64,000 nucleotides of DNA from a virus (Duplodnaviria > Caudoviricetes): IMG/VR virus record IMGVR_UViG_2890725172_000001, positions 1 to 64,000 of that record; one strand, given 5' to 3'. The notes under the pieces are model-generated. The model searched no databases. It was not told where the DNA came from and saw only the letters and a list, made by a program, of their open reading frames with translations. Below, piece after piece: positions 21,591 through 50,666 of this stretch. The position numbers and the translations under genes were made by a program. Position 1 is the first letter of the stretch; each line of letters starts with the position of its first letter.

Positions 21591-22287
21591 GGTGTCGGGC
21601 AACACGGACCGGCACGCAGGGCAGTAAGGGTTCTTCAGAAGTCGCCCGGGTTGAGCAGAGCTCCCCACGCGATCGGACCTACTTACTGGGTGTGCGTGCG
21701 AGACGGGATGGTTCCGCCTGGGCCGAATTGTCAACGGCCGGACACAGCTTCATCGACTCTGATTGGCGCACGGGTGAGAAAGCCCTAAAGGCTGACACGA
21801 ACGCGCTAGGTGCATGACCAGACCTGTAACTGGCATGTGCGAGACGGGAACGTCGCGGGACTCTGCGAACACCAGAGATGCGGCGGGAACTAGGTACGCG
21901 TGGAATGCGGCAATCCATTGGCAACCGCAGATCGCCTAGGTACGGGCTTGGTAGTGCTTGTCGGGTACTGAGGAATGGCGATCACCGGACATCGGGCCGA
22001 AATTTGGCCTGGTGATCGGGTAGGCGTAAACGGTGCGCAATCAAGTCGGGTGTATAACGCTCTGGCCCATATCGCGGATTGGGGAACGGAAACCGTGAAG
22101 GTCTGTCAGTAGGACGGTCGGATGTGTAGTTGGCATCCGAACGAGGGCAGAAACCACACGAGGAACGGGAACTGACTCTTAGGAGGTCTGCGGCTTGATA
22201 GCAAGACCGTCGTCTACGAAATGACAGGATGTGGCGCTCCCGGCAGTTGTTAGGTCACACCGGAACAAACGCTTATTGCCTGTCAAC
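21591..22287 (+). ncRNA. Candidate large (~700 nt) structured non-coding RNA
   Basis: No plus-strand ORF in the track; more than 12 helices identifiable by eye; bounded by a promoter and a tRNA mimic. Confidence 0.6.
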
Positions 22288-22357
22288 GCTCTGCTCTGGC
22301 AATTAGAGTAAGGCCGAATTTTGGCCGATTGGGGTTCGATTCCCTGACAGAGCGCCA
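22288..22357 (+). ncRNA. tRNA-like element with encoded CCA
   Basis: GCTCTG/CAGAGC-G-CCA acceptor, CTCT/AGAG arm, GGCC/GGCC arm, GGTTCGATTCC T-loop. Confidence 0.7.
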
Positions 22358-22387
22358 ATTCAGGACAACTGGTTAACCGAAAGAGAG

Positions 22388-22687
22388 ATGACCATGATCA
22401 TGCACGACCGTAGGCACACGTTTGTCTACACGCCCATTCGATTCCGCCGGTTGGAGCGCCGCGCGAACGGCGTGCATATCCGCTTCACCGGCGACCGTCA
22501 CACGTGCAAGTGCGCCTACGTGTGGCTGTACCACAAGTACAGCAAGCCCAACACGGCGCGTGCTTGCACGCGAAACGGCAAGTACGCGGCTATCGCGATG
22601 TACTGGAGTGCGCGCTTCAACTGGAACGGCAAGAACACCATTCGATACAACGGCACCAGTAAGCCGCTGTGGTTAACGCACGTCTAA
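22388..22687 (+). CDS. Basic hypothetical protein
   Basis: First ORF of the rightward operon. Confidence 0.55.
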   Translation: MTMIMHDRRHTFVYTPIRFRRLERRANGVHIRFTGDRHTCKCAYVWLYHKYSKPNTARACTRNGKYAAIAMYWSARFNWNGKNTIRYNGTSKPLWLTHV

Positions 22688-22709
22688 CCACAACCCTAAG
22701 GAGAGAACT

Positions 22710-22862
22710 GTGAAGATCCGAATCGTCAAGTGCCCGAAGCGTACGATCAGCCACGTCATGTGGAACATGACGCCGGTGTTCCTGTGGGCCGGTCCCGAAA
22801 ACGGCTACGACGGACACGTGGTCAAGTTCCGTGGGAACGGACAGTACAACTACGCGATCTAG
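22710..22862 (+). CDS. Small hypothetical protein (50 aa, not in ORF track)
   Basis: AAGGAG RBS, GTG start. Confidence 0.5.
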   Translation: MKIRIVKCPKRTISHVMWNMTPVFLWAGPENGYDGHVVKFRGNGQYNYAI

Positions 22863-22924
22863 GCCGTTGGCGATCAGGGCCGAATTCCATAAGGGGTTCG
22901 GCCTTAGGTCATCTCGGATATGTC
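22859..22924 (+). repeat. Intergenic hairpin family A, copy 1
   Basis: ctaggccgttgg...gccgaattcc-N4-ggggttcggcc...gtcatctcggat. Confidence 0.8.
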
Positions 22925-22945
22925 GCATCAATAGGAGGAATCTCA

Positions 22946-23467
22946 ATGAAGTTCACGACGGTTGACCCACAGCCGGAGGACGACAAGATCATTCCGACGC
23001 ACCGGATCAAGCTCTACGGATACGGCTGGACGCGGTTCCGGCTGATCAGTTTCGAAGCGGACACGGATTATGGCTTCTGGTACGGCAGGGCCCGTGTACA
23101 GGCGATGAACGGCGACGTTCGGTGGATTGACTTTGGTAAGTACAACTACACGAACATCGAATCCCTGACCGAAAACGACAAGGGTGCGTTCCCGTTTCAC
23201 AAGGATGCGCCGCGCGTGGGTGGCGGATACGACAAGGCGGTTCTCGGAGGAACGACGTTCTGTCCTCGTCTCGGAGAGATGACTATTAACGCTATCGCGC
23301 ACACGGACGAAACGTGGGCGGCCGTCGTCATGCAGCCAAAGGAAGGGGACGAGTGGGTGTGTTACATGGTGAACACGAAGACGGGTGAACTGTCGAATGG
23401 CGTGTTCGGTGACATGACAAACGTGTTCGTTCGCTTTGCGGAGCGTGTGAATCCGGCCGCATTCTGA
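22946..23467 (+). CDS. Hypothetical protein
   Basis: AGGAGG RBS. Confidence 0.7.
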   Translation: MKFTTVDPQPEDDKIIPTHRIKLYGYGWTRFRLISFEADTDYGFWYGRARVQAMNGDVRWIDFGKYNYTNIESLTENDKGAFPFHKDAPRVGGGYDKAVLGGTTFCPRLGEMTINAIAHTDETWAAVVMQPKEGDEWVCYMVNTKTGELSNGVFGDMTNVFVRFAERVNPAAF

Positions 23468-23532
23468 CTAGGCCGTTGGTGATTGGGCCCGAATTCCGCC
23501 AGGGGTTCGGGCCTTAGTCATCTCGGATGTGT
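23468..23532 (+). repeat. Intergenic hairpin family A, copy 2
   Basis: Near-identical to 22859-22924. Confidence 0.8.
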
Positions 23533-23552
23533 CATATAGCGAGAGGACAAGC

Positions 23553-23771
23553 ATGGAACTCAAGTTGGGTCAAACGCTTCACCACAACGCCACGGGAGAC
23601 GCCTTGCTGTTGGCTATGGCGTTCACTAGAACGGGACGCACGGTCATCGTTCTATGCGGTGGAAGCGAGTCGGTCTGTACGTTCATCGACGACAACGGAG
23701 AAATGGACGCTGGCATATACGGCACTTTGGGGTGGACCATGGAATGGTTCGCCCGTCGTGTCACTGAGTAA
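23553..23771 (+). CDS. Hypothetical protein
   Basis: GAGG RBS. Confidence 0.6.
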   Translation: MELKLGQTLHHNATGDALLLAMAFTRTGRTVIVLCGGSESVCTFIDDNGEMDAGIYGTLGWTMEWFARRVTE

Positions 23772-23786
23772 GCCGTAAGGACTCGT

Positions 23787-23839
23787 CTAGGACTCGCATC
23801 GGGTCTAGCTCTAGTAGCTAGGCCCCATTGCATGGCTAG
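23787..23839 (+). repeat. Intergenic hairpin family B, copy 1
   Basis: ctaggactcgca-[hairpin]-attgcatggctag. Confidence 0.7.
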
Positions 23840-23994
23840 CCAGTCATGTGTTGGACGCCGATTTTGGAAGGTGTCGCATGTACATGCAGTTCCTTAAGGT
23901 CACCAACACGCGTCGCCTGTTCTACGGCTACAGGATGACGCGCGCCACGTGGCGCAAGTACAAGTAGCCCAACTAGTCAACTCAAGGGAGAGAC

Positions 23995-24300
23995 ATGCAG
24001 ACCACGATTCGTCAGGTCATCCGGCATAAGCGCCGTCCGCGCCGTGAGCCGTCCAAGTCGTACGTCAAGAAGACACGCATGGTCCCGATCAAGGAATGCA
24101 CGGTGAAGGACATCCGGGAACACCTGGCGAACTGTGACCGGTGCATGTCTCCCGGAAGCCTGGTCATCTTCTATCTCGACCGGGAAAAGGCCGCGATTCT
24201 CGCGAATGATGCGAGTGAGGCGCGTTACTGGGGACTCAAGGTGGACAACCAGATTGCCGCCCACCACAAGGGTTGGCTTGAGTTCCCGATCGCGGGCTGA
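23995..24300 (+). CDS. Hypothetical protein
   Basis: GGAG RBS. Confidence 0.65.
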   Translation: MQTTIRQVIRHKRRPRREPSKSYVKKTRMVPIKECTVKDIREHLANCDRCMSPGSLVIFYLDREKAAILANDASEARYWGLKVDNQIAAHHKGWLEFPIAG

Positions 24301-24373
24301 AAAGCCGAAACGCGCAGTGATGCGCGTCGTGTTGGGTGTGGTGCCCAATGCCTGACGACTGGTAGCCGTCAGC
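24296..24373 (+). ncRNA. Type II hammerhead ribozyme (2-nt insertion after the core)
   Basis: GAAA-stem III-GUC-stem I-CUGACGA in order, with all three stems pairable. Confidence 0.7.
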
Positions 24374-24401
24374 TCCGCGCCGAATTTCAGGAGGTAGCAG
24401 T

Positions 24402-24584
24402 ATGACGAACAAGGTCAAGAAACTCGCGCTCTTCTACATCTGGGATTGGAAGCGCCGGGGGTTCTGGCTGTGTCCCACGATTTACGCGGAAGCTATCGCT
24501 GACGCCAAACTCATGGTCGAGTTGTACGGAGACACGGAAGCCGTCAACCGTCGTCTGCGTGAAATGAAGACGTACACCATCTAA
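24402..24584 (+). CDS. Small hypothetical protein
   Basis: AGGAGG RBS. Confidence 0.65.
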   Translation: MTNKVKKLALFYIWDWKRRGFWLCPTIYAEAIADAKLMVELYGDTEAVNRRLREMKTYTI

Positions 24585-24602
24585 GAGCTAGGAGATACGT
24601 AC

Positions 24603-25001
24603 ATGGGTGACCTTGAGTTGGTCATGGCTGATGTCACGCGCTCGCACCGTAGCCAGACGCCGATTTACGACGGCACGGCAAAGGTGATCGCGTCGTGGTG
24701 GTACGGAGGACACAGCCACGCTTTTACTGGCCTCAACATGTCCGGGCGTATCTACATGCCTGAACTCTTGGCGGAAATCGATGGCGCAATTGAGTACGTT
24801 CGAAAGAGCCCTGCAAATCATTGGGACGCACACAAGCGGGTCAACGATCAGGGAACGCGTAGGCACAACCTAGCGGCCTTAGAGGCCCTTAAGGTCTACG
24901 TCCAGTACCACAAGAACCGGGGGCCGCAAGAGGGATGGGGGCGCGTGTGGGTGGATGTGCTCACGCCCGAGGACGAATACAGCATCTTGGAAGGTGAATA
25001 G
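24603..25001 (+). CDS. Hypothetical protein
   Basis: AGGAG RBS. Confidence 0.7.
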   Translation: MGDLELVMADVTRSHRSQTPIYDGTAKVIASWWYGGHSHAFTGLNMSGRIYMPELLAEIDGAIEYVRKSPANHWDAHKRVNDQGTRRHNLAALEALKVYVQYHKNRGPQEGWGRVWVDVLTPEDEYSILEGE

Positions 25002-25003
25002 TC

Positions 25004-25261
25004 ATGTGCCGAAATGACTCGCCTATGGTGACCGTGTACATGCCGTCTAACGGTCTCTATCAGGTGGTACCAAGCCGCCTGGCCGCGATTGAAGCGCGGT
25101 ACCTACCGAACACGCTAGATGATCTCAAGGCGCACGTCCGGCGCATTCTGCGCGACGACTACGGCAACCCTGATGGCGCGATCGTCGCGCACATGGAAGG
25201 AATCGAAACAATCACTCAGTGCCTTGTCGTGCTCGCCGAATTACACGGCATGGGGAGCTAG
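25004..25261 (+). CDS. Hypothetical protein
   Basis: Operon ORF. Confidence 0.6.
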   Translation: MCRNDSPMVTVYMPSNGLYQVVPSRLAAIEARYLPNTLDDLKAHVRRILRDDYGNPDGAIVAHMEGIETITQCLVVLAELHGMGS

Positions 25262-25263
25262 TC

Positions 25264-25318
25264 CTAGGACTCGCAACGCGGGCACCGGTCACGTACCGGT
25301 GTCCTATTGCGTGGCTAG
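25264..25318 (+). repeat. Intergenic hairpin family B, copy 2
   Basis: ctaggactcgca-[hairpin]-attgcgtggctag. Confidence 0.7.
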
Positions 25319-25335
25319 TACAGCACGTTAGTTAG

Positions 25336-25644
25336 GTGCCGAAATATCAGGAGGTCCCGCTAGGCATGGGATTCCAGTACAGCAGTCACATCGCGGCTCT
25401 GGGGGCTCTGCGAACGCTGGCAGACAAAGAGGGGCTTTGGAGTCATCGCGACTTCAGAAGTTCCGGCCCGCAACTGTTGATCGGTGAGCCGGAAACCGGG
25501 AAGTACATCCGCGTGTTCTGCTTCCGCAACAACTACAAGGTGTTCATCCCCGGTGCGCCGGATGACGCACAGGGGATCGTATTCCGGGAAGAGCCGCAGG
25601 AAGTGTTAGACGCACTTCCCGCACTACTCAAGAATGTGACATAA
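25336..25644 (+). CDS. Hypothetical protein
   Basis: Operon ORF; may start at internal ATG after AGGAGG. Confidence 0.6.
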   Translation: MPKYQEVPLGMGFQYSSHIAALGALRTLADKEGLWSHRDFRSSGPQLLIGEPETGKYIRVFCFRNNYKVFIPGAPDDAQGIVFREEPQEVLDALPALLKNVT

Positions 25645-25864
25645 CATGATGGCCGATGAAGACGTAGACGTCGATTTCGAAATCCCGTGGTACGTAGACG
25701 ACGAATTCGATCCCGACCACTGCACGGAACACGGTCACAGTATCGACCTGTGCCGCCATCTCGACTGATCATCTGATCAAGGCCGCACACGTACCACTTC
25801 TCCGGAACGTGTGCGGTCTTATTCATGTGATCCCCAACCATCTAGCCGAAAGGCCGAATTCACC

Positions 25865-26320
25865 ATGCACGAATTCAGCGAGTACCCCAAAAAGGCAGCC
25901 AACGGTAGGGACATGTATTGGGCGTGTTGCGTCTCGACCATTGGCCCGACTTGCGGTCACAAGGCCTTGCCGCAGGATGACTCCATGACGCTCTACCCGC
26001 GTACCGAGCCTCTCAACGTCAACATGCCTAAGACGTACTTCGGTCGCAAGCCTGAAGATCTCACCCATGGTCTGGGGTGGGTGCGTGCCTGCCCGATTTA
26101 TCAGGTGCCGAGTTCTCCCGGCTCTACGCGCCCGGAAGTCGGTGAATACGCATTCTCCTGCTACGTGGTCGAAACGTTCGGCAACGACATGGTGAAAGTG
26201 CGGTTCGACTGGGACGGAGTGCCCGGCCAGCGTGAACAGATCGTCTACCCTCACGAAATTCACGCTCCCAAGTGTCAGTGCCGCGCCTGTAAGACCGACC
26301 ACATTTACAACGTCGACTAG
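25865..26320 (+). CDS. Hypothetical protein
   Basis: Operon ORF, Cys-rich ends. Confidence 0.6.
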   Translation: MHEFSEYPKKAANGRDMYWACCVSTIGPTCGHKALPQDDSMTLYPRTEPLNVNMPKTYFGRKPEDLTHGLGWVRACPIYQVPSSPGSTRPEVGEYAFSCYVVETFGNDMVKVRFDWDGVPGQREQIVYPHEIHAPKCQCRACKTDHIYNVD

Positions 26321-26350
26321 ACCCAAATCCATCGAAACGGAGAGCGCGTC

Positions 26351-27001
26351 ATGATGTTTAATCTCGAAGAGGAGACGGGCTACCGCTGCGCGGTGGACGG
26401 TCGCGACTTCTACACGGAAGAGATGAGGCTCTTACTCAAGGTCAGGTTCCGAATTTCGGTGCCCCTGAAGAACCCCGAGATGTTCGACTACCTGAATGGT
26501 ACGGTGTTCCTCTGCGGGCCGTGCCGTCGTGATTTCGAGCACATCATCGCGCCTCACATCATCAAAGAACGGGAGCACACCTGTCGTGAGCCTGAAGGCG
26601 AACAGGCCAACGAGTGTGAAGCGAACGGGCACCAGGAATACACCGAATATGAGGTGTTGTGGATCGAGGTGTGCGAGTTCGACACTGACGTCAACGGCAA
26701 TCCCAAGTCCATCTATGAGGTCGCGGCAGAGGACATGACGCGTGACTGCGGGTGGCCTCTCACGGACGGATACGACTGGTTCTCTTGGGAGCCCTACCAG
26801 GAATACCGAACCAGCGCCGACACCTGTTACACGCAAGACAAGGCGTTCTTGCGCGGTCAGTGGCCTGATGGTGATCACTACGAGGCTCACGGCCGAATCC
26901 GCGACGTGTTCGACCGCTGGGAGACCAAACGGCGTACCGAGTGGGACGACTACCAGGCGCGCACCGCTGCCCATCAGGCTCGGATGAAGACCAACGCGTA
27001 A
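26351..27001 (+). CDS. Hypothetical protein
   Basis: GGAG RBS. Confidence 0.7.
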   Translation: MMFNLEEETGYRCAVDGRDFYTEEMRLLLKVRFRISVPLKNPEMFDYLNGTVFLCGPCRRDFEHIIAPHIIKEREHTCREPEGEQANECEANGHQEYTEYEVLWIEVCEFDTDVNGNPKSIYEVAAEDMTRDCGWPLTDGYDWFSWEPYQEYRTSADTCYTQDKAFLRGQWPDGDHYEAHGRIRDVFDRWETKRRTEWDDYQARTAAHQARMKTNA

Positions 27002-27087
27002 CGCTGGACGTGGGGCCTGAGATTCGGGGATCAGGCCCTAGCGTCGAACGGACGCGTTAACCTACAAGGCTGCCTACACACCAAAGG

Positions 27088-27522
27088 ATGATCATGACTG
27101 AGACTCGACCGCACCACTGGCACATCGCGCATGGCCTGGCGGGCTACGGACCGGACGGCGCGGACGGCTACAACACCGCTACGGAGATCAGCGGGTCTGG
27201 TGGTCTCGCCGACCAGATCAGCGACGAACTCGACCGAGACGCCGAATCGGCTCACGGTCTGATCAGGACTGAAGGTGAGGCGGGCAACTTCAAAGAGGCC
27301 TTCGAGGCGTGGGAGCTTCACGACAAGCTGACTACGCTGTCCCTCAACTTCAGCATCAGGCGAGAGGACGCGCCTCTCTACAAGGATGATAAGCCGCTGT
27401 GGGAGAGGACCGTTCTCCGGCTGGTGGCCGAAAACTTCCCGCTGGACGTGTCGGACAACTCGCGGATGTACGTGTGGGAGTGCACGGAGCCGGAATGCGA
27501 GCATCTCACCGACGACGAATAA
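27088..27522 (+). CDS. Acidic hypothetical protein
   Basis: AAGGA RBS. Confidence 0.7.
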   Translation: MIMTETRPHHWHIAHGLAGYGPDGADGYNTATEISGSGGLADQISDELDRDAESAHGLIRTEGEAGNFKEAFEAWELHDKLTTLSLNFSIRREDAPLYKDDKPLWERTVLRLVAENFPLDVSDNSRMYVWECTEPECEHLTDDE

Positions 27523-27751
27523 GCTTCCCCGCCGAAATCTCGGGCCCTGGCGAAATCGCTAGGGCCTTTGTCATACATAGGAATAGGAACGCGGATGTCA
27601 AGCTACACACCCACCACATGTCCTCAGTCAGGTTGTGGGCAGCAGGGAACATTCCTGTCGAACTACGGAACCGGCAATGAGGCCCTGTACATGTGTCCGA
27701 ACAACCACCAGTGGACTGCCAAGAAGAAGTAACCCACCAGAAAGGTAGAAC

Positions 27752-28075
27752 ATGAACACCGAGCGATTCACGCCGGAATACTTCAAGCCGCGCGTTGCCA
27801 AAGGCGTCGACAAGCTCGACGAGAAGAACCCCGGATGGTTCCACGATGTCAATCCGGACCTGTTAGAGATGGACTCCGCCGACGCCTGTATCCTCGGCCT
27901 GCTCTACGGCTGGTACTTCAGTGGGCTCCGAGCCTTGTCTGTCACGGACGGTACAGAATTCGGCTACAACATCGACTTCGAAGAGTCCGACTGCGATGAG
28001 GTCCGGTCGGAGGCCTGGCACACGCTTCTAGTCCTCTGGCTGGACGTCATCGATGAGAAGAGGAAGGCATCATGA
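27752..28075 (+). CDS. Hypothetical protein
   Basis: RVAKGVDKLDEKNPGW...CILGLLYG. Confidence 0.7.
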   Translation: MNTERFTPEYFKPRVAKGVDKLDEKNPGWFHDVNPDLLEMDSADACILGLLYGWYFSGLRALSVTDGTEFGYNIDFEESDCDEVRSEAWHTLLVLWLDVIDEKRKAS

Positions 28076-28347
28076 CCACCGTGACCGATGGTTGGCGCGT
28101 CGGCGACGTCGTCAGGCTCCCGGCCGATCAGACCGTGTGGGAAGTCGATAGCGTCTACCGGCGTCAGGGTGAGGTGGTCGAACTGATCCTAGGCCGCTCG
28201 GATGCAAACACCACGGATGATGGTGCCCGGTGGGCTCGCGGAACCGTGAGGGCTGTGTCTCCGGATCGCGTCACACGGGTCAAGCACTGGTACGAGCGCA
28301 CGCTCTACGGCTTGGATGAAGAGTCCCGTTGGGGCGAGCCTGCCTAG
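28072..28347 (+). CDS. Hypothetical protein
   Basis: ATGA-coupled ORF. Confidence 0.65.
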   Translation: MTTVTDGWRVGDVVRLPADQTVWEVDSVYRRQGEVVELILGRSDANTTDDGARWARGTVRAVSPDRVTRVKHWYERTLYGLDEESRWGEPA

Positions 28348-28378
28348 CTTCTGCCAAATCTCCTAGACAAGGACACTC

Positions 28379-28789
28379 ATGGACACGGGATTACTTCTCT
28401 GGCGCGTAACTCTGCAATGGCAGAAGAAGATTACGGCTGCTCTTAAGCCCTTGGGCCTGACCCACGTGCAGTTTGCTCTTATGAGTGAGCTGGAGCGCGT
28501 GAGGTCCGAAGACGGGCAGGTCAACCAGAAGCAGCTAGCCAGGCGAGCACGCACAGACGAGATGATGACCGGGCAGGTCCTGCGGGTTCTCGAAACGCGG
28601 GGGCTGGTCATCCGGTGGCGCGCTGAGAGCAACCGGCAAAGCATTCTGGTTAGGCTGACGGACCTTGGGCACGAGCGCCTGACCACGGCTACACCTGTCG
28701 TCAAGGCCGTCGATGACACGTTCTTCGGGGCTGCCGAGCCGGACCTGAGAGACCTCTTTACCCTGCTGGGTGAGAGCGAGACTGCCTAG
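28379..28789 (+). CDS. MarR-family transcriptional regulator
   Basis: GLLLWRVT..WQ.....ALKPLGLTHVQF, VLRVLETRGLVIR, VRLTDLG. Confidence 0.9.
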   Translation: MDTGLLLWRVTLQWQKKITAALKPLGLTHVQFALMSELERVRSEDGQVNQKQLARRARTDEMMTGQVLRVLETRGLVIRWRAESNRQSILVRLTDLGHERLTTATPVVKAVDDTFFGAAEPDLRDLFTLLGESETA

Positions 28790-28867
28790 CCTGGCCCGAA
28801 AATCGGCCCCCTGTCGTAGGGCCCCACTACCCTGCACCTGATACATAGAGCGAGAGGACACACCGGC

Positions 28868-29140
28868 ATGGGTGCCGAGATTGCCGAACCCCCAGACGGC
28901 TTCAAGGTCGGGGACATCCTGATTCTCTTCCGGACTGGTCCCGGGGATGACGGGGACTACGCGAGCCCCGCCACGACCCGTCACGCGATCATGGCTGCTC
29001 TCAGCAAGGCTGGCCTACGACCTTCTGAGGGGTCATTGCGTGACCATGAGGACATCATGGCGTTCCGGGAGCGTGGAACTCTCCTTGAGCCCATGATCCT
29101 CACCCTAGGCCGTAGCGGCTGGAACCCGCCCGGCCGCTAG
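28868..29140 (+). CDS. Hypothetical protein
   Basis: GAGG RBS. Confidence 0.6.
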   Translation: MGAEIAEPPDGFKVGDILILFRTGPGDDGDYASPATTRHAIMAALSKAGLRPSEGSLRDHEDIMAFRERGTLLEPMILTLGRSGWNPPGR

Positions 29141-29166
29141 CCCGACCAACACCGAGAGGACACGAT

Positions 29167-29631
29167 ATGAAGACTCTGCGTGAGCGCATCACCGACGACG
29201 GTATCCACATCATCTTCGAGAACCCGGACGGCACCGGCGACGACCTGTCAGAGCTCGTCGCCGAGCCCACGCCAACCAGCGGTGCCAAGTGGAAGGTCTG
29301 CCTCAAGCATCACAATCACGGCGGCCTGCTCTGGGTCGACTTCGGTAACTCGATCGCCGCCGGTCTCGACCAGCCCGACGTCAATGAGGTGGTGTTGGGG
29401 CTGGTCGGCAACGCGATCCCCTTCCTCAACAGCGAGCCGTTCCCGGAGTGGGGACGGAATTACTACGGCCTGTCGGTCCGCGACTTCGAGGACAGTGTGT
29501 CCCTGTGGAACTTCGTGGAGAGGGCGTACACCTCCTACGTGGAGAACGAGGAGAAGACGCGCGAACTGATGGAGTGGTTGGGGCCTGACCGGCTGCGAAC
29601 GTACGCCTTCGAGACCGAATTCGACGTCTGA
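29167..29631 (+). CDS. Hypothetical protein
   Basis: GAGG RBS. Confidence 0.7.
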   Translation: MKTLRERITDDGIHIIFENPDGTGDDLSELVAEPTPTSGAKWKVCLKHHNHGGLLWVDFGNSIAAGLDQPDVNEVVLGLVGNAIPFLNSEPFPEWGRNYYGLSVRDFEDSVSLWNFVERAYTSYVENEEKTRELMEWLGPDRLRTYAFETEFDV

Positions 29632-29643
29632 GAAGACCAACGA

Positions 29644-29705
29644 CTGAACGGCCTGTACCCGACTACCCCTCACGTCAGGTGGTGGGTAGTCCGTAGAGGT
29701 TTCAG
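29644..29705 (+). repeat. Intergenic hairpin family C, copy 1
   Basis: ctga...cctgtac-[hairpin]-gtagagg...tcag. Confidence 0.65.
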
Positions 29706-29742
29706 CCGGAACCCATTCCCGCCGATTTCTGAGAGGCTACAT

Positions 29743-29913
29743 ATGCAGTTCGATATCAACTTTCAAGTGGATAGTAACGGCAGCGGTCCCGGTGAGGCTG
29801 CCTATTCGAAAGACGAGGTGTTCGCCGCGCTCAAAGACGTGCTGTTCTCGACACCCATCCCGATGAATGACGGCGGCGTTCTGATCATCACCCGTATCAG
29901 TCCGATCAACTAG
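29743..29913 (+). CDS. Small hypothetical protein (56 aa, not in ORF track)
   Basis: GAGG RBS following GCCGATTT. Confidence 0.55.
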   Translation: MQFDINFQVDSNGSGPGEAAYSKDEVFAALKDVLFSTPIPMNDGGVLIITRISPIN

Positions 29914-29924
29914 GAGACCAAGCA

Positions 29925-30173
29925 ATGGAACGTAAGCCCAGTGAGACCATGCGGATTCTCACGATCGACACACTTGAGCGCCTGAACCTCAGCAGTGCGG
30001 GCAACCCCCGATTCAAGGTGACGTTCACCAACGGGGAATCGGCGCAGACGCAGAGTGACGCCTCCGTCAACTACGGAATCGAGAACTCCGAATATCGGGG
30101 CGTCCCTCTTAAGGTCACGTTCTCGCCCAACGGTCGCATCACATACATCGAAGTGGCGAAGTCGCAGCCCTGA
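29925..30173 (+). CDS. Hypothetical protein
   Basis: AGGAG RBS; LERLNLSSAGNPRFKVTF. Confidence 0.7.
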   Translation: MERKPSETMRILTIDTLERLNLSSAGNPRFKVTFTNGESAQTQSDASVNYGIENSEYRGVPLKVTFSPNGRITYIEVAKSQP

Positions 30174-30211
30174 CTGTACGACATATCAGGCTGCGACAAA
30201 GGTAGGCGCAC

Positions 30212-30868
30212 ATGTCAATCGTCAGACGCGGATACGTCCGCCCGTTCGAAGTCACATATAGGCTCGCGGACGGCACGCGGAGAATGCGGGGCTTCGATTC
30301 GCGAGAGGAGGCTGACAAATGGGCGGACGAGTGCAACAGGCTCGATCCCGGTAGCCTCGTACGTGAGGAATTCGCCGTGGAGAACACGGAAGACGGTGCC
30401 ATCTCCGTGCACATCCCAAGGGTTAACGTGAGCGTGCAGACGGCCAAACGTGTTGAGGCCGCAATCAATCGCATACTCAACACTCAGGTCATGCACGTTG
30501 CGTATCACTCTGGGACGGACAACGGGAACGACGAAGAGCTCTACCAGATCATTTTAGAGATGTTCGACAACGAAGAGTGGTTACGCGAGTCGTACACTGA
30601 CGATCCCCGTCTGCCTGAGTCGGATAACATCACCCTCACGTTGTTTTCTGTGGTTCGTGACGACGTTGAGTTCTGGGTACTCGTCAGCGAAAACCCGGAA
30701 AGTTTCGTCCTGTACCAGTACCCCGACCATGGGGCCGCGATCACTGACTATGAGCAGAGCGTTCGCAACCTCGTCGTGGTCGGTGCTGTGCTGGAAGCCG
30801 ATTTCGAGGTCCCCGGGTTCGAGTACAAGAGTTCCGAGGGTGGTTACTTCCGGTACAACACCCTCTGA
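30212..30868 (+). CDS. Hypothetical protein
   Basis: Operon ORF. Confidence 0.65.
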   Translation: MSIVRRGYVRPFEVTYRLADGTRRMRGFDSREEADKWADECNRLDPGSLVREEFAVENTEDGAISVHIPRVNVSVQTAKRVEAAINRILNTQVMHVAYHSGTDNGNDEELYQIILEMFDNEEWLRESYTDDPRLPESDNITLTLFSVVRDDVEFWVLVSENPESFVLYQYPDHGAAITDYEQSVRNLVVVGAVLEADFEVPGFEYKSSEGGYFRYNTL

Positions 30869-30881
30869 ATTCTGACCCACA

Positions 30882-30942
30882 CTGATCACTGCGTTCGCCT
30901 CCCCTCCTATCGGGGGTAGGGGAGGCTTGCGGAGAGGTTTAG
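30882..30942 (+). repeat. Intergenic hairpin family C, diverged copy
   Basis: ctga..ctgcgt-[hairpin]-gcggagagg.ttag. Confidence 0.5.
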
Positions 30943-30985
30943 CAGGGCCATACTCCGGGCCGAAATTCACAGACAAGGAATCAAT

Positions 30986-31555
30986 ATGACTGAGAGCACC
31001 ACGCCGCGCCTGCACATCAAGGTCACGGACACTCAGGACCGGTACATCGGGGAGAACTGGTTCGACGCGACCGACTATTACGCCGTAGACGAAGGGCTTG
31101 AAGAGATCGTCAGTGAAGCGAGTGACGTCCTCACGTACAAGACGGAGATCATCGGCTCCGAGGGGTTCGGCTGGTTCGCTGACAAGCTCTCCGGCCTGTC
31201 GGTCGAGAAGGCATGCGGCATCGGCTACCTGATCGAAGAGAAGGGGCTCGACGTCGTCACCGAGTGGCACAAGCTTCGTGGCCCCATCGAGTACTTCCCC
31301 GCCGACGCGATCGACGCGGAGCGGAAGTTCGACGCCGAATACCAGGGAGAGTTCAGCTCCGCTGGCGCGTTCGCCAAGGACTACGTTCCCCAGCAGCACG
31401 CCGAAATGTTTGAGACGGTGCCGAGAAACATCGTCGAGAACATCAACTGGGAGGGTGTGGCCGAGAGTCTGCACGGCCATTACGGCGTCACGGTGGTAAG
31501 CAGGGGTCCTGGTCAGTGGGACGGCGTCGTGGTCTTCCGTCTGGAGAACGAGTAA
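30986..31555 (+). CDS. ardA: Antirestriction protein, ArdA family
   Basis: Acidic; IGENWFD, EGFG, YQGEFSS...FA, INWEGVA. Confidence 0.8.
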   Translation: MTESTTPRLHIKVTDTQDRYIGENWFDATDYYAVDEGLEEIVSEASDVLTYKTEIIGSEGFGWFADKLSGLSVEKACGIGYLIEEKGLDVVTEWHKLRGPIEYFPADAIDAERKFDAEYQGEFSSAGAFAKDYVPQQHAEMFETVPRNIVENINWEGVAESLHGHYGVTVVSRGPGQWDGVVVFRLENE

Positions 31556-31557
31556 CC

Positions 31558-31872
31558 ATGACTCTGATCAAGTTCGGGTCGTGGAACAACGACCCCGACG
31601 TACACAAACAGCACATCACCCTCATGGGCGAGCGCATCGCAATCATCACGCTTGAGCGCGGTGCCAACGACATCTGGGGTATGCGGCTGCTGGGTGCCAT
31701 CAGGGAGGGGTCTGGTGGAGAGCGGGACAAGATCGGCCCGCCGGTGGGGTTCCCTGCCGATTACGACGTCGACACCGTTCGGAGCGCGGCCATGGCCACT
31801 GCCGCCGCGCTGCTCTCCGACTGGTTGAAGGGGCAGGTCCTAGAGGGGCTGGAAGAGGCGAAGCGGTCATGA
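31558..31872 (+). CDS. Hypothetical protein
   Basis: Operon ORF. Confidence 0.6.
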   Translation: MTLIKFGSWNNDPDVHKQHITLMGERIAIITLERGANDIWGMRLLGAIREGSGGERDKIGPPVGFPADYDVDTVRSAAMATAAALLSDWLKGQVLEGLEEAKRS

Positions 31873-32141
31873 CGGCACCGACTCCCGAACCCGGCGAGCT
31901 GAGAGACGACATCGGGCAAGCACAGGTCGTCCATGTGCTCTCACCTCCTGAGCGTATCCCTATCAACGAGGACGGAGCCCCGGCTGTCGGCCTGCCTGTG
32001 ATGCTCTACGAGCCGAACTACGCCAACCCCGGTGCCGGGCCGATAAAGCGTCAGGTGGTTCTGATGCTCCCCTGGGATGAGGCGAGTCGCCTCGTCATCG
32101 ATATCACACGGCTGATCGTGGAGGATTCGAGTGGCGTCTAG
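31869..32141 (+). CDS. Hypothetical protein
   Basis: ATGA-coupled ORF. Confidence 0.6.
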   Translation: MTAPTPEPGELRDDIGQAQVVHVLSPPERIPINEDGAPAVGLPVMLYEPNYANPGAGPIKRQVVLMLPWDEASRLVIDITRLIVEDSSGV

Positions 32142-32240
32142 ATCTCAGGCGATGTTACTTGATCTGATCGAGAGGATCATCCGGGACATCCTCCGTAGTC
32201 GTCAGCGCCGAAATTCCCGACAGAAAAGGAGAGGAGACTC

Positions 32241-32606
32241 ATGAACAGCGTTGAGTTCGAATCTGGTGATGTCGCGAGGTTCTATCTGGGAACGGAGGAG
32301 ATTCGCTACACCTTCGTCTCTGACGGGGCGGCCGGAACGATCACCGCCAAGTCCGCGTTCTTCGGCGAGCCCAAAAAGATGGCCGTCATGCTTCAGCTCT
32401 CGGACAACACTGAAATTGGCGACTGGGGAATTATGGGGGTCGTCCTCTGTGACGGGCACCAACTCACGGCGCGGCCTCATTTCAACGCGGCCGACAAATA
32501 CCCGCTCGACGGCGTCGACAACGAAGAGGCGCGTGCGAGCATTTCGCGCCTCTTCTCCGAAATCGCATGGCATTACTACGAGATCACGAACTGGAGAAGG
32601 AGCTAG
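32241..32606 (+). CDS. Hypothetical protein
   Basis: AGGAG RBS. Confidence 0.65.
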   Translation: MNSVEFESGDVARFYLGTEEIRYTFVSDGAAGTITAKSAFFGEPKKMAVMLQLSDNTEIGDWGIMGVVLCDGHQLTARPHFNAADKYPLDGVDNEEARASISRLFSEIAWHYYEITNWRRS

Positions 32607-32607
32607 C

Positions 32608-32901
32608 ATGATCGACGAGAGGGAGATTCTTGAGGCCCTTCGCGCGACTGACGAGCGACTGGTGGCGGAGCAGGATCTCACACCCGTTCAGCTGATCCTT
32701 CGGGACAGGCCTGAGACGGGTGTCACCGTTCTTCGCCGGGCCTACGAGATGGGCGGCGACATCCTTAACGCGTGGGATGTCCTGGCGTCGGCTCTGACCA
32801 TTCAGAAGAGCGTGGAAGCGGTTCTCGAACACCTCGGCCACGACCTCGGAATGACGATCCTCAGGAAGGTCGCTGAGCTCAAGTACAACGCCAAGCTCTA
32901 A
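32608..32901 (+). CDS. Hypothetical protein
   Basis: AAGGAG RBS. Confidence 0.65.
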   Translation: MIDEREILEALRATDERLVAEQDLTPVQLILRDRPETGVTVLRRAYEMGGDILNAWDVLASALTIQKSVEAVLEHLGHDLGMTILRKVAELKYNAKL

Positions 32902-32931
32902 CGTCGGACCAACATCAAAGAGGAATAACCC

Positions 32932-33495
32932 ATGTCAGCGCCGGAGAGATATTTCATCGACTTCGCCACATCGGAAATGGCGTCATGGATCGCCAGCATG
33001 CCGGAACTGGCGGACGTACCTGCCGCCACCGTCGCTGGGTGGCGCGTGACCATGTACAGCGCTGCCCTCGACGTCCTCAAGGAACTGGACAACGAGCACG
33101 ACGGCTTCTACGACGGCACCAGCATCTGGGTTAGCGGTGACGAGTTCACCGTGCATGCCCTCACTGAGACCGTCGACCTGTTAGAGCGGGTTCTCTACGA
33201 CCTCGCTGTGAGGGCGAAGAGTCGCATTTTCCAATTCGGCTCCGATTATCTGGCGCTGCACCCGGAAGACGCCCAGGCCGGGGAGAAAGAAGACGACCCG
33301 TTCGACACGCTTCTGAGCGCGGAGCTGATGCGGATCGAAGGAATCGCAGAGGCCATGGAACTGGTCCTCGGCTTCGACGACAAGGGGCGTCCCTCCCGAG
33401 CGGTCCGGGTCAAAGACCTGATCAATACGTCTGAAGTGACCGCGCTCAAGGAGAGGGTCAACGCCCGAGCAGGCCGACCGATCTTCGACATCTGA
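32932..33495 (+). CDS. Hypothetical protein
   Basis: GAGG RBS. Confidence 0.7.
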   Translation: MSAPERYFIDFATSEMASWIASMPELADVPAATVAGWRVTMYSAALDVLKELDNEHDGFYDGTSIWVSGDEFTVHALTETVDLLERVLYDLAVRAKSRIFQFGSDYLALHPEDAQAGEKEDDPFDTLLSAELMRIEGIAEAMELVLGFDDKGRPSRAVRVKDLINTSEVTALKERVNARAGRPIFDI

Positions 33496-33542
33496 CCTGG
33501 GTCATCGTCCCTTTGAGGGGTGTACCACCAACAGACCCGTAG

Positions 33543-33863
33543 ATGGAGAAACACATGGACATAAGAGACGAGAAGACACTCATCCCGGTCGCCGAGCTTC
33601 TCGCGAAGTGGGCCGTCGCCGATGCTGACGGTCCGGTGGCTCGGCTGACGAGGCTGTACGAGAACACCGAAGAGACGGCGACCTTTCGGACCATCCTCAT
33701 GAACGCCTCGGTCGAGGTGGGCGGCGCGATCTCGGAGGCCGCCTACGACCTGATGTTCAGTACCGACCCCGCCGACGACGAGAGCTGTTCGGTCCGGCGC
33801 GGCTGGGTCGTCAACTCGGCGATCAACCGGGTATCCGAGTCGCACTCATGGATTCGCCCCTGA
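33543..33863 (+). CDS. Hypothetical protein
   Basis: Operon ORF. Confidence 0.6.
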   Translation: MEKHMDIRDEKTLIPVAELLAKWAVADADGPVARLTRLYENTEETATFRTILMNASVEVGGAISEAAYDLMFSTDPADDESCSVRRGWVVNSAINRVSESHSWIRP

Positions 33864-33981
33864 TTCGCTGCGCACTCTCTCACCTCCCGGCTTCGGGGAC
33901 GGAAGGTGAGGGACTCGCTGGAATCAGTCCAGCACAGTTGTAGGGGCCGAAATTCGGAGAGGACATGAGGAAGAGAGACGC

Positions 33982-34647
33982 ATGAGTAAGAGCATCGAGA
34001 TTGGCACCGTTCACATCACCGAGAAGTACGAGGAGAGGGAACGGGCGTTCCAGACGGCATCCTGGTGGCGTGACAACGACGTGGCGCCGCAGTCGGTGGC
34101 ATTGATGGGTGAGTTCTCCGGCGGCCAGCTCATCGACTGGTGGTACACGCTGGACACGGTGATCACGGCCGATTATTTCGCATCGTCCGGGTTCGGTATC
34201 ACGCTGGACTACGACACCGCACAGAACGCGGGCAAGCCCAACAAGATCACGCACCGCACGTACTGCTACATCCTGGCCGAGCTGCTCGCGGTGAAGAAGG
34301 GTGAGCTCAAGCACGGGTTCATCGTGCTCGACCCGAACCTGAAATTCCGGATCAGTACCTTCGAGGGCTCAGGGCATCGCATGTCCCGGCTACACAACCC
34401 GGTCTGCATGGACTGTGCCGCGCCGATCCGTATCGCGACCGAGTACGAGCGCTGGGCCGGAGTCGACCGTCTGAAGAACCCACATGCGTTCCCGGCGCGT
34501 GAGTACATGCACGTCACCGACACGGACGGTGAGCCACACAACGGTCGGCCGACGAAAGAGAGCTGGCTCGACTACACCATCCCCAACGTCCAGTACCGGC
34601 TGCACCTCGTCGAGGACGGGGCCGAAATCAAGGAGAACCAGGCATGA
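33982..34647 (+). CDS. Hypothetical protein
   Basis: Operon ORF with RBS. Confidence 0.7.
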   Translation: MSKSIEIGTVHITEKYEERERAFQTASWWRDNDVAPQSVALMGEFSGGQLIDWWYTLDTVITADYFASSGFGITLDYDTAQNAGKPNKITHRTYCYILAELLAVKKGELKHGFIVLDPNLKFRISTFEGSGHRMSRLHNPVCMDCAAPIRIATEYERWAGVDRLKNPHAFPAREYMHVTDTDGEPHNGRPTKESWLDYTIPNVQYRLHLVEDGAEIKENQA

Positions 34648-34979
34648 CCGAGTACACGCCCTACGGCTGGGTCATCACCGAGGACCTGATCACCAATGGC
34701 GAGTACAACGGGGTGATGGGGCCGCGCACGATGGACCCCGAACTTGAGGCGCGTCTTGAAGCCGGAGAGGGCACGGAGTTCCGTCTGCTCGACGACGACG
34801 GCGAGCACTACGCCACTGGCCGGATCATCGGCCCGGCCGACCCCGACTGGGGGAAGAAGGCGAAGGAGTACGAGATGGTCGAATGGGAGTTCGCTCCGCT
34901 CCACGAGTTCGGCGCGAGGAACTGGGGCTGCACCGACGTGCAGTACAAGAACGACGCCGGTGAGTGGAAGAACCTGTAG
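34644..34979 (+). CDS. Hypothetical phage protein
   Basis: FRLLDDDGEHYATG...FAPL.EFG..NWGCTDVQY. Confidence 0.75.
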   Translation: MTEYTPYGWVITEDLITNGEYNGVMGPRTMDPELEARLEAGEGTEFRLLDDDGEHYATGRIIGPADPDWGKKAKEYEMVEWEFAPLHEFGARNWGCTDVQYKNDAGEWKNL

Positions 34980-35027
34980 GACCGTAACGAGAAGCGCAAC
35001 AAGTTAACCAATTAAGGAGACAATCAC

Positions 35028-35561
35028 ATGGACTTCGAGATCACCCTCATCGACCTCAACCCCGAAGGCAACGTCGACCACGTGTTCAACCTGCTCGACG
35101 ACGACCTGATGAACGACGTCAACGCCGCCTTCGGTGACGAGGGCAGCAACGAGGACGCGAAGGAGGGCGTGCATTTCAAAGTCGGCCCGGTCAACGGGAT
35201 GGAGCCGCTGTACGACGAGGGCGAGGTGCCTGATGCCTCCTTCGCCGAGATTCTTCGCGCCGCGCGGCTGGCCGCGCAGGCTAAGGACGAGTCCTGGGAG
35301 GGGTTCCTCGCCTGGGTCGACGACACGGGCGGCGGTCTTCGGTTCTACCCTGACGACGACGAGGCGCTGAAGACCTTCCGGAAGCAGTTCCGGGGCGAGT
35401 ACGAGGACCTGGAAGAGTACGCGAAGGAGTGGGCCGAGGACCAGGGCGCTCCCGAGGCGATGTTCGGCTACATGGACTGGGACGGCTTCGGCGTGTGGCT
35501 CGCGACGGACTACAACGTCATCGACCTGCCGAGCGGTAACATCGCGATCTTCACGAAGTAG
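35028..35561 (+). CDS. ardA: ArdA-family antirestriction protein
   Basis: Highly acidic; FRGEYEDLEEYA, YMDWDGFG..LATDY. Confidence 0.75.
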   Translation: MDFEITLIDLNPEGNVDHVFNLLDDDLMNDVNAAFGDEGSNEDAKEGVHFKVGPVNGMEPLYDEGEVPDASFAEILRAARLAAQAKDESWEGFLAWVDDTGGGLRFYPDDDEALKTFRKQFRGEYEDLEEYAKEWAEDQGAPEAMFGYMDWDGFGVWLATDYNVIDLPSGNIAIFTK

Positions 35562-35630
35562 ATCAGCTCCGCCCGAATTTTCAGGCTCGGCACACACGGT
35601 GTCGGGCCTTCGTCATGTCTGGAGGTACTT

Positions 35631-36167
35631 ATGGACTTCGATCCTTATATCACTCTCGTCAGCCTGGACGGCTGGGCGAGTACGCGGATGCGCCTGCTGG
35701 ATTGGGACGACGAGCGCGCCAAAGAGATCAGGCTGCTGTTCGGCGAGAACGCCAAACAGGGGAGCCACTTCAACATCGAAAGCATCGATGGGATGGAGCC
35801 GCTCTGGCACCCAGTCGGAGACACCTACAGGGATCTGGAGCTGCGTCACATCGTAGTGATCGCTCGGCGAGCGAGGCTGTGCAAATCACCACAGGCGTTC
35901 CTTGCGTGGATCAAGCTGATCCGGTCCGACCTCATCGGGAAAGAAGGCCTTTCCTTCGATGCGGTCACGTCGTACTTCCAGGCGTCCTTCCGAGGCGAGT
36001 TCGCCAGCCTGGCCGGATACGCGCGACAGTGGGCTGACGGTCAGCGGTGGCATCCCTACGTGCGCCTGCACATCGACTGGGACGGGCTCGGCCGGTCGCT
36101 CACAGAGGATGCCGTGGTCGCTGAGCTCCCGAACGGCAAGATCGCGGTACTCACGTACAACACCTGA
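35631..36167 (+). CDS. ArdA-like paralogue with reduced acidity
   Basis: FRGEFASLAGYA, HIDWDGLG; shares MDF, GMEPL and ELPNGKIA-type motifs with the upstream gene. Confidence 0.65.
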   Translation: MDFDPYITLVSLDGWASTRMRLLDWDDERAKEIRLLFGENAKQGSHFNIESIDGMEPLWHPVGDTYRDLELRHIVVIARRARLCKSPQAFLAWIKLIRSDLIGKEGLSFDAVTSYFQASFRGEFASLAGYARQWADGQRWHPYVRLHIDWDGLGRSLTEDAVVAELPNGKIAVLTYNT

Positions 36168-36350
36168 TCACCACGGCGAGCGGAAGGTCACCGGCGACGG
36201 CGGGATCACCGCTCAGGGAGGATCCGACCAGCATCGGTCGGGCGCAGGCCAGTACGGGCTGTGTCCGGCCGTTTTTGTTTGGCCCCTCACGACGGCTCTC
36301 CACAGCGGGTGGGTGAGCTATACCTACACGAGTAAGAAAGGAGCCTACTC

Positions 36351-36731
36351 ATGGGGACTGCGATCTTGGTCAAACGGAAGCCTGTTCGCATCAACTACTC
36401 GGTGAACACTACGGTGTATGAACGTGCGATTGAGCTGGCCGCCACGATGAACCTGACGGTGCCTCAGGTGCTCACACACCTCATCCCTCAGGTGCTGGCG
36501 CGGCCGGAGCCGCAGTGGCGGCCGACGCTGGCGGTTCTGCGGATGCATGGCCCGCAGAACCGTCAAGAGTTCGCGAACGTGCCTGAGGACCTTCTCAAGG
36601 ACGGAGAGGAGAATTTCCTGCCGGGCGCCGAAACTCCGCTAGAGCGTGGACGGCTGGCGGCGATGGTACTGAACTACTACGTGGCTGGGGTGATCACGCT
36701 CAACGTCAAGGTGGAGCTCAATGAACCGTGA
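36351..36731 (+). CDS. Hypothetical protein (possible ribbon-helix-helix)
   Basis: RINYSVNTTVYERAIELAATMNLTVPQVL. Confidence 0.6.
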   Translation: MGTAILVKRKPVRINYSVNTTVYERAIELAATMNLTVPQVLTHLIPQVLARPEPQWRPTLAVLRMHGPQNRQEFANVPEDLLKDGEENFLPGAETPLERGRLAAMVLNYYVAGVITLNVKVELNEP

Positions 36732-37383
36732 AGACGTCCTTCGCCGAATTCGAGCAGCCCTAGATCAGGCTAACCACCGGAGTACACCGCGCGGTCAGGC
36801 CATCTCGGCGCTGGCGGTGGCGACGAAGCTAGCACAGCGCCTCGGTCTCGACGATCCCCGCCAGGCCGTGGTCGACGTCGCCTGGTACGAGATCAGCACA
36901 CGCGGCCAGCATCACCCCGAACGCGGCGAGGCTCTGTGGGAGGTCAGTGAGACTCTCGGCTGCCGTGCCGTGCTACATGGTCACCGGCGCCGGGATCGAC
37001 CGGCGCACCTGGAGCTGATCGGCCAGCCGCCGACGCTGGAATGGCTGTGTGATCGACTGCTTCCCTCGGTCTCCTTTCAGATGGAGATGCGCTTGATGGA
37101 GGAGCTTCTCCAGCGTCGTGGACAATCCCGTACCGACCGTACCGATTTTGTACGAGGATGGTATGGCGGCTGGGGGAGCGAGGTCGCCGAAGTGCTCCGG
37201 CTACGGGGCAGGGCTCGCGAAGTGACCGAGCTTGTCGACGCCGAATTTCGCAGGCGCCACCCACAGCTGCACCCCAACAGAACGATCTATTTCTCCCCCC
37301 AAGGGCATGCCCTCGGCCGACAGGCCGGTCAGGTGGTGGACCTCGGGGATCGAGTTCTCATAGAAGGCGACAACAGTGAGTGA
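36721..37383 (+). CDS. DUF2786-like protein
   Basis: VLRRIRAALDQA...A.KL..RLGL N-terminus; G..AG..VDLG C-terminus. Confidence 0.65.
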   Translation: MNREDVLRRIRAALDQANHRSTPRGQAISALAVATKLAQRLGLDDPRQAVVDVAWYEISTRGQHHPERGEALWEVSETLGCRAVLHGHRRRDRPAHLELIGQPPTLEWLCDRLLPSVSFQMEMRLMEELLQRRGQSRTDRTDFVRGWYGGWGSEVAEVLRLRGRAREVTELVDAEFRRRHPQLHPNRTIYFSPQGHALGRQAGQVVDLGDRVLIEGDNSE

Positions 37384-50093: not shown

Positions 50094-50167
50094 TACCGAC
50101 GCAGGGACTTGAACCCTGAACCTCCCGATTTTGAGTCGGGCACCTCTGCCAGTTGGGCTACGTCGGC
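50094..50167 (-). tRNA. tRNA-Leu(CAA), short variable arm
   Basis: Cloverleaf; CCCGA-CTCAAAA-TCGGG. Confidence 0.9.
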
Positions 50168-50171
50168 CGGG

Positions 50172-50243
50172 CTCCCCATGGAGGGTTCGAACCTCCATTA
50201 CCAGAGCCAAAATCTGGCGTCCTGCCGATTGGACGAACGGGGA
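50172..50243 (-). tRNA. tRNA-Gln(TTG)
   Basis: CCAGA-TTTTGGC-TCTGG. Confidence 0.9.
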
Positions 50244-50244
50244 A

Positions 50245-50320
50245 TGGCTGACCATCCTGGACTCGAACCAGGGATGGGCGGATTAACAGTCCGCTGCTCT
50301 GCCAGCTGAGCTAATGGTCA
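50245..50320 (-). tRNA. tRNA-Asn(GTT)
   Basis: GCGGA-CTGTTAA-TCCGC; CCA encoded. Confidence 0.92.
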
Positions 50321-50325
50321 TTGCG

Positions 50326-50399
50326 TGCCGGTGCGAGGACTCGAACCCCGACTGGCCCGATCCTAAGTCAGGTGCCTCTTCCAATTGGGCTACACCGGC
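50326..50399 (-). tRNA. tRNA-Leu(TAG), short variable arm
   Basis: CCTGA-CTTAGGA-TCGGG. Confidence 0.88.
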
Positions 50400-50400
50400 G

Positions 50401-50475
50401 TGCCGACACAGGGACTCGAACCCCGGACCCGCGCGATTAAAAGTCGGCTGCTCTAACCAGCTGAGCTATGTCGGC
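50401..50475 (-). tRNA. tRNA-Lys(TTT)
   Basis: CGA-CTTTTAA-TCG; irregular anticodon stem. Confidence 0.88.
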
Positions 50476-50593
50476 AAATTTTGTGGCGCAGAAACCTATT
50501 GAGAATGCTTCCCCTCAGGGGGCCTCGACACGATTTCTACCTACTGCGCATCAGTTAAAGGTGTCATAAGCCTACTCAAGTAAGTCGAACACG

Positions 50594-50665: not shown

Positions 50666-50666
50666 G

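Follow-up and report, generated by a model that had tools for sequence, protein, structure and literature searches.

Judged by its sequence, the element at 24303-24371 on the + strand of this phage DNA is a genuine type II hammerhead ribozyme and a new member of the Rfam family Hammerhead_II (RF02276), ordinary in its build and odd in a few details. It fills the space between the stop codon of one small gene and the ribosome-binding site of the next, within a gap of 101 nt between the two ORFs. The ribozyme is encoded in sense orientation among small phage genes of a polycistronic series, and we consider it probable that it cuts the transcript between these two genes. The window, by which we mean the whole stretch of DNA that was analysed, covers the opening 64 kb of a contig of 110,447 bp (62% GC), and this phage contig sits within an 8.3-Mb assembly of 70.6% GC. 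Encoded on the contig are two integrase-like genes, an array of 15 tRNAs, a homologue of thymidylate synthase, an exonuclease and a cassette for RNA repair; we take the contig to be a temperate phage, or else a phage-like replicon, of an actinomycete. The PNKP of the cassette is only 41-44% identical to the PNKP of large Streptomyces phages such as Circinus, BillNye and Angela.

Family membership and anatomy

The match to RF02276 scores 43.9 bits, compared with a gathering score of 37, and has an E-value of 1.1e-5 when the whole window is searched with all 4227 Rfam families. The initial annotation had called a type II hammerhead at this place and had suggested a search with the type II covariance models; the score above the gathering threshold and the layout of the strands bear this call out. 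Some of the phage copies that we found by pattern, members of the second phage class described below, score 39-52 bits with the same model, so that 43.9 bits is typical of real members. The match is the sole Hammerhead_II match of the entire 8.3-Mb assembly. Rfam gave no second ribozyme match elsewhere in the 110-kb phage contig, and a relaxed search with E up to 5 over 20.5-42.5 kb, covering 22 kb of the operon, returned no other hammerhead-like match.

The element has the type II permutation, in which stems I and III are capped by loops and both chain ends lie in stem II. The strands follow in the order stem II 5', GAAA, stem III hairpin, GUC, stem I hairpin, CUGACGA and stem II 3' (Table 1). 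The invariant core is complete, comprising C3 U4 G5 A6 N7 G8 A9, G12 A13 A14, the A15.1-U16.1 pair (A24310-U24327) and H17, which is C24328. Beyond the three pairs of stem II, UCAGC at 24369-73 pairs with GCUGA at 24296-300. The elements named in the initial annotation (GAAA at 24307-24310, the stems, the GUC triplet, the core, and the GGU/GCC and UCAGC/GCUGA pairings) were all found where it had placed them, and the two-nucleotide insertion that it had seen after A9 falls in insert columns of the Rfam alignment.

We would also like to mention an observation on the Rfam model itself. The structure line of the RF02276 consensus pairs positions 2-3 (gG) with the Gc that follows CUGAUGA, which places a G opposite a G. 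The expected G10.1-C11.1 pair suggests that this annotation is off by one position; the score is unaffected.

Table 1. Positions in the window of the hammerhead, the structures that compete with it, the genes on either side and the RNA repair cassette.
Feature	Position	Strand	Basis
Upstream ORF, 101 aa, ORFan; UGA stop at 24298-24300	23995-24300	+	ORF list; third-position GC 0.78
Closing helix, 5' strand CGCGGGCUGA; last three codons and stop codon of the upstream ORF	24291-24300	+	constrained folding
Alternative hairpin GGCU-GAAA-AGCC, which sequesters the stem II 5' strand	24295-24306	+	minimum-free-energy folds
Stem II, 5' strand GCC (positions 11.3-11.1); pairs with GGU 24361-63	24304-24306	+	sequence, Rfam alignment
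Core G12 A13 A14	24307-24309	+	sequence, Rfam alignment
Stem III: A15.1-U16.1 and six more pairs; arms CGCGCA/UGCGCG at 24311-16/24321-26; GUGA tetraloop at 24317-20	24310-24327	+	sequence, Rfam alignment, folding
GUC triplet	24326-24328	+	
Predicted self-cleavage site, C17 (24328) / G1.1 (24329)	24328-24329	+	position in Rfam alignment
Stem I hairpin, 9 bp; arms GUGUUGGGU/GCCCAAUGC at 24329-37/24343-51; loop GUGGU at 24338-42	24329-24351	+	sequence, Rfam alignment, folding
Core C3 U4 G5 A6 C7 G8 A9 (CUGACGA)	24352-24358	+	sequence, Rfam alignment
CU insertion between A9 and G10.1	24359-24360	+	insert columns of Rfam alignment
Stem II, 3' strand GGU (positions 10.1-10.3)	24361-24363	+	sequence, constrained folding
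Tail AGCCG	24364-24368	+	AGCC aligns to the conserved AGCC of the Rfam model
CGUCAG of the core-masking hairpin, complementary to core CUGACG (24352-57)	24367-24372	+	minimum-free-energy fold
Closing helix, 3' strand UCAGC-U-CCGCG; mutually exclusive with the mask hairpin	24369-24379	+	constrained folding
GCCGAAUUU motif (24379-87) and Shine-Dalgarno GGAGG (24390-94) of the downstream gene	24379-24394	+	
Downstream ORF, 60 aa; ATG at 24402	24402-24584	+	no Pfam or PHROG family
RNA repair cassette: Rnl2-like ligase, PNKP, RlaP nucleotidyltransferase, Rnl1-like ligase	60109-63468	-	Pfam, PHROGs

The small-gene operon and hammerheads of other phages

The hammerhead and both flanking ORFs share the + strand, and the third-position GC of both ORFs is of the coding type. 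The upstream ORF has no Pfam or PHROG match, and in a search of 5.8 billion proteins it matched itself only. As the initial annotation had indicated, the hammerhead lies directly upstream of a start preceded by GCCGAAUUU-AGGAGG. No promoter-like or terminator-like site was seen on the + strand beside it. A divergent region at about 20.9-22.4 kb is followed downstream by an extended series of small + strand genes, to which these two belong; that these are early genes, as they have been labelled, is an assumption.

Intercistronic hairpins are abundant throughout this operon, and several repeated signals accompany them. The motif GCCGAAWT has 29 copies in the window, compared with 3.4 expected by shuffling. 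Of these, 20 fall within the small-gene operon on its + strand (21722-37247, e.g. 24379-24386), many of them directly before ribosome-binding sites according to the initial annotation. The copy at 24379 abuts the closing helix, and the hammerhead contains a GCCGAAAC of its own (24304-11) that has one mismatch to the motif. A composite element, CTAGGACTCGCA followed by a hairpin that differs between copies and by AUUGCRUGGCUAG, is present at 23787-23839 and at 25264-25318, flanking a four-gene block that includes the hammerhead; Rfam has no family at either of these hairpin copies. We also noticed that CUCC at 24373-24376 is able to pair with GGAG at 24390-24393 of the downstream Shine-Dalgarno sequence, with a predicted probability of at most 0.17, and that the active fold of the ribozyme ties up the same CUCC in the closing helix. 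The hammerhead suggests that these small genes are punctuated by RNA-processing signals of several kinds.

Relatives of the locus itself were searched for in several ways. A blastn search with 800 nt of the locus found no match in the phage collection, and neither flanking ORF had a relative in viral contigs. The next-but-one gene (ORF 24603-25001) has relatives of 53-56% identity encoded on two Logan contigs, and a search with this ORF and the two relatives aligned found no locus in genome or viral contigs. A 112-kb contig with several hammerheads (L013) was considered as kin of this phage and rejected, as it is unrelated by PNKP.

Comparators were collected by two pattern scans of IMG/VR. 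Their sequences are interrelated, so all counts made across them describe the sets and do not amount to independent tests. The closest match to the present copy is a GC-rich subclass (L139-L258) of more than 120 loci, 97 of them unique, with the layout AAG-CCGAAAC ... GUC ... loop UGGU/UGGUU/UGGC ... CUGAYGA-U-GGC-AGCC. UGGU is the most frequent stem I loop motif of this subclass, and GGU variants of the stem II 3' strand occur in it too. A second phage class (L011-L128) has more than 118 loci, of which 69 unique copies were analysed. Its layout is a stop codon, AGC-CGAAAC, GUC, a loop YGGC(U) and CUGAYGA-U-GGC-A-AGCC; its stem II covaries from GGC/GCC to GAC/GUC, and a stop triplet stands 1-6 nt ahead of stem II in 64 of the 69 copies. 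In a number of GC-rich viral contigs (L139, L140, L170, L175, L177 and others) no more than about 1 kb separates the hammerhead from a gene whose product is some 37% identical to a deoxynucleotide monophosphate kinase-like protein of the phage (Pfam DNMK). The gene for that protein is at 55685-56392 (-) of the window, far from the hammerhead.

Hammerheads are also found in actinomycete genomes of the host family. Of 150 genomes sampled across the taxonomic order, four, all of the host family, have Hammerhead_II matches, two of them above the cut-off, and all four (L134-L137) keep the order of stop codon, hammerhead, ribosome-binding site and start. The matches score 26.7-47.8 bits (L134 1501-1587; L135 1501-1586; L136 1501-1579 and 1762-1842; L137 1501-1568). 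One genome has two copies 260 nt apart, and the pseudoknots of L134 and L135 have 6 bp and 4 bp, respectively, with sequences other than AGCC. The six other genomes of the host genus gave no Hammerhead_II match. Our literature search returned no paper that pairs hammerhead ribozymes with actinobacteriophages.

The A9/G10.1 junction and the competing folds

An unusual feature of the present copy is the CU between A9 and G10.1, a junction that in hammerheads is a metal-binding site. All 97 unique copies of the GC-rich subclass have one base at this place (U in 86, A in 7 and C in 4), and the joint here is neither the direct one nor the one-base form that is normal in phage copies. When the two-base pattern was searched for, viral contigs gave seven stretches, all of them stemless chance matches within coding sequence, metagenome contigs gave one stretch without stems, and genome contigs gave none. 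The form NN-GRC-A-AGCC, which would combine two inserted bases with the class-like layout, was not found either. The pseudoknot is also weak. Loop I UGGU (24339-42) can pair with the tail GCCG (24365-68) by two G-C and two G-U pairs, with a duplex energy of -3.0 to -3.2 kcal/mol, which is among the weakest 8% of the subclass (median -4.9). In the majority of type II hammerheads, loop I forms a pseudoknot of at least four pairs with the tail 3' of stem II (PMC3088659).

Folding predictions add two further features. Once the hammerhead pairs are enforced, a 10-bp helix between 24291-24300 and 24369-24379 emerges, which prolongs stem II across an internal loop so that the ribozyme is closed on all three arms. 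This closing helix has an energy of -18.0 kcal/mol, a value attained by 15 of 3444 (0.4%) segment pairs with matching geometry across the window, and in the subclass 2% of the copies have a closing helix of -15 kcal/mol or stronger. The minimum-free-energy folds, on the other hand, contain two hairpins that hide parts of the ribozyme. The hairpin over the stem II 5' strand has a pair probability of 0.6-1.0, and position 11.2 is paired 5'-ward with a probability of 0.74, compared with a median of 0.04 in 67 phage comparators. The hairpin that masks the core has a pair probability of 0.65-0.99 in all transcript contexts tried but one (0.21). Its duplex energy of -9.0 kcal/mol is reached by 2.7% of shuffled tails and by 5% of the 31-mers of the window, and 1% of the subclass masks are as strong. 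Nearest-neighbour folding assigns 0-35% of the predicted ensemble to a cleavage-competent stem II; these models also miss stem II in most comparators.

It is conceivable, and we think unlikely, that this copy is a crippled or very slow relic, inactivated by its additional base at A9/G10.1 and its weak pseudoknot, with hairpins that are generic intercistronic structure of the same sort as the operon's other hairpin families. No other real copy that we found has the two-base insertion, the copy is single and without relatives found, and insertions and deletions around the pseudoknot reduce the rate by orders of magnitude (Perreault et al., PMC3088659), all of which agrees with a relic. Prolonged neutral decay, however, would not leave all invariant core bases and three well-paired stems intact. 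The distance from A9 to AGCC is 5 nt, the same as in the U-GGC-A-AGCC of the second phage class, and the closing helix could make up for the weak tertiary contact. The active and the alternative fold lend themselves to a refinement of the main reading that is possible at best, namely a gated or bistable ribozyme whose cleavage depends on translation of the upstream gene. In such a switch the active fold needs the 10-bp helix, the alternative hides the stem II strand and the core, and ribosomes that stop at the UGA would open the closing helix and sit over GCC-GAAA. The near-equal energies of the active and the alternative fold (-43.0 and -44.1 kcal/mol, pseudoknot excluded) are consistent with gating, as is the rarity of the closing helix both by chance and in the subclass. 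The mask taken alone is marginally beyond chance, even though it equals the strongest 1% of the subclass. Tails able to pair with the core or with G8-G10.2 are present in part of the phage family (32 of the 97 tails have CCAUY), and in an N7 swap test 22 were better and 9 worse, but these counts overstate the support since the comparators are interrelated. Masking is, moreover, heterogeneous in both comparator sets, with the GC-rich subclass no better overall than shuffled tails (-5.19 vs -4.82), and the region is GC-rich and full of hairpins. As there is one sequence without relatives, no covariation is demonstrable. A switch in which the completion of upstream translation governs if, and at what time, the RNA is cleaved before the following gene strikes us as quite unlikely. 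A general rule of self-masking tails was also considered and set aside, its support being partial and heterogeneous across the comparator sets.

Two other explanations were weighed. That it resembles a hammerhead by chance, in an intergenic region rich in G, C and hairpins, is scarcely credible. The operon does abound in intercistronic hairpins, but the E-value against all Rfam families, the failure of a relaxed search (E up to 5) over 22 kb of the operon to find a second hammerhead-like match, and the agreement of the AGCC tail and the UGGU loop with the subclass all argue otherwise. It is very improbable, in turn, that the ribozyme works with the PNKP and RNA ligases of the phage, its products being healed and sealed or 5'-phosphorylated and so led to re-ligation, circularisation or controlled decay. 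Hammerhead cleavage leaves ends of the types that PNKP heals and ligases then join, and the enzymes are encoded by the same phage. The initial annotation had placed a PNKP and an RNA ligase at 60-63 kb, and Pfam (HAD_PNKP with an AAA_33 kinase domain, RlaP, RNA_lig_T4_1 and RNA_ligase) and PHROGs confirm them. The functional link that it had implied fares poorly. A distance of 36 kb separates the cassette from the ribozyme, and the two are on opposite strands; the cassette is about 9 kb from the 15-tRNA array (50094-51274 on the - strand), and cassettes of this sort usually serve in tRNA repair. Circinus and Angela, both Streptomyces phages, encode PNKP and a ligase but gave no Hammerhead_II match (best score 14.6 bits). 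Conversely, PNKP and Rnl1 occur together in none of the five large hammerhead-bearing phage contigs, one of which has a weak PNKP-domain match and another an Rnl1; these co-occurrence samples are small, and the negative evidence is weak and not proof. A single ribozyme also leaves no excised segment to circularise. A further tRNA, beyond the array, lies at contig position 65117-65193 (L002 1117-1193).

Probable transcript cleavage and comparison with known hammerheads

We return to a hammerhead that probably cuts the transcript between two genes, a reading in keeping with the family score, the complete core, the strand shared with both ORFs and the layout of the GC-rich subclass. The order of stop codon, hammerhead, ribosome-binding site and start recurs in many phage copies and in the four host-family genomes. 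Type II hammerheads with this pseudoknot cleave fast, and for prophage genes flanked by hammerheads Perreault et al. (2011) proposed a role in processing long phage transcripts into shorter messages (PMC3088659). In the present phage, stems I and III would form after transcription, GCC and GGU would make a 3-bp stem II, and the AGCCG tail would contact loop I. The RNA would then be cut between C24328 and G24329, parting the 101-aa gene from the 60-aa gene. At its 3' end the upstream message would then carry the GC-rich stem III hairpin and a 2',3'-cyclic phosphate, and the downstream message would start at the base of the stem I hairpin with a 5'-OH, leaving 73 nt ahead of its start codon. The new ends may be expected to alter the stability and the translation of each half independently.

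Self-cleavage in vivo, which we infer from family membership and layout, is likely to be real. What weighs against it is a stem II that is in the minority of the predicted ensemble, a core that is mostly predicted to be masked, an insertion at A9/G10.1 shared with no other real copy found, and a pseudoknot with just two G-C pairs beside two G-U pairs. Because of the two inserted bases, the weak pseudoknot and the competing hairpins, this copy may cut slowly or only under some conditions. It is the odd junction and the competing folds that keep us at a likely cleavage and leave some room for a crippled copy.

The element adds a hammerhead from a high-GC temperate actinomycete phage, and it opens no new class of system. 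Its unusual junction is a natural test of how far the A9/G10.1 joint and the pseudoknot can relax, and the closing helix together with the weak pseudoknot likewise offers such a test. Like RF02276, it has a full core, capped stems I and III, an open and short stem II, and an AGCC tail able to pair with loop I, and like members of that family it is positioned between genes of a phage or prophage. It departs from the norm of the family by two bases at A9/G10.1, two G-U pairs in the pseudoknot and a 10-bp extension of stem II.

With the GC-rich subclass it shares the AAG-CCGAAAC 5' junction, the loop I motif and a GGY stem II strand followed directly by AGCC, and many copies of that subclass have, as here, a stop triplet nearby upstream and a Shine-Dalgarno-like motif within about 25 nt downstream. 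It differs from them in having CU instead of one inserted base, a pseudoknot of -3.0 as against a median of -4.9, and a strong closing helix and mask. The 5-nt distance from A9 to AGCC and the order of stop codon, hammerhead, ribosome-binding site and start are as in the second phage class, which reaches that distance with one inserted base and a linker A, whereas here there are two inserted bases and no linker. Hammerheads of the second class and of the host-family genomes are without a closing helix (-4.0 vs -3.8 for shuffles). Outside phages, the hammerhead of the CChMVd viroid tolerates one extra base between A9 and G10.1; there it is a single base in a type III hammerhead of a circular RNA replicon, whereas here two bases are inserted in a type II hammerhead of a phage mRNA.
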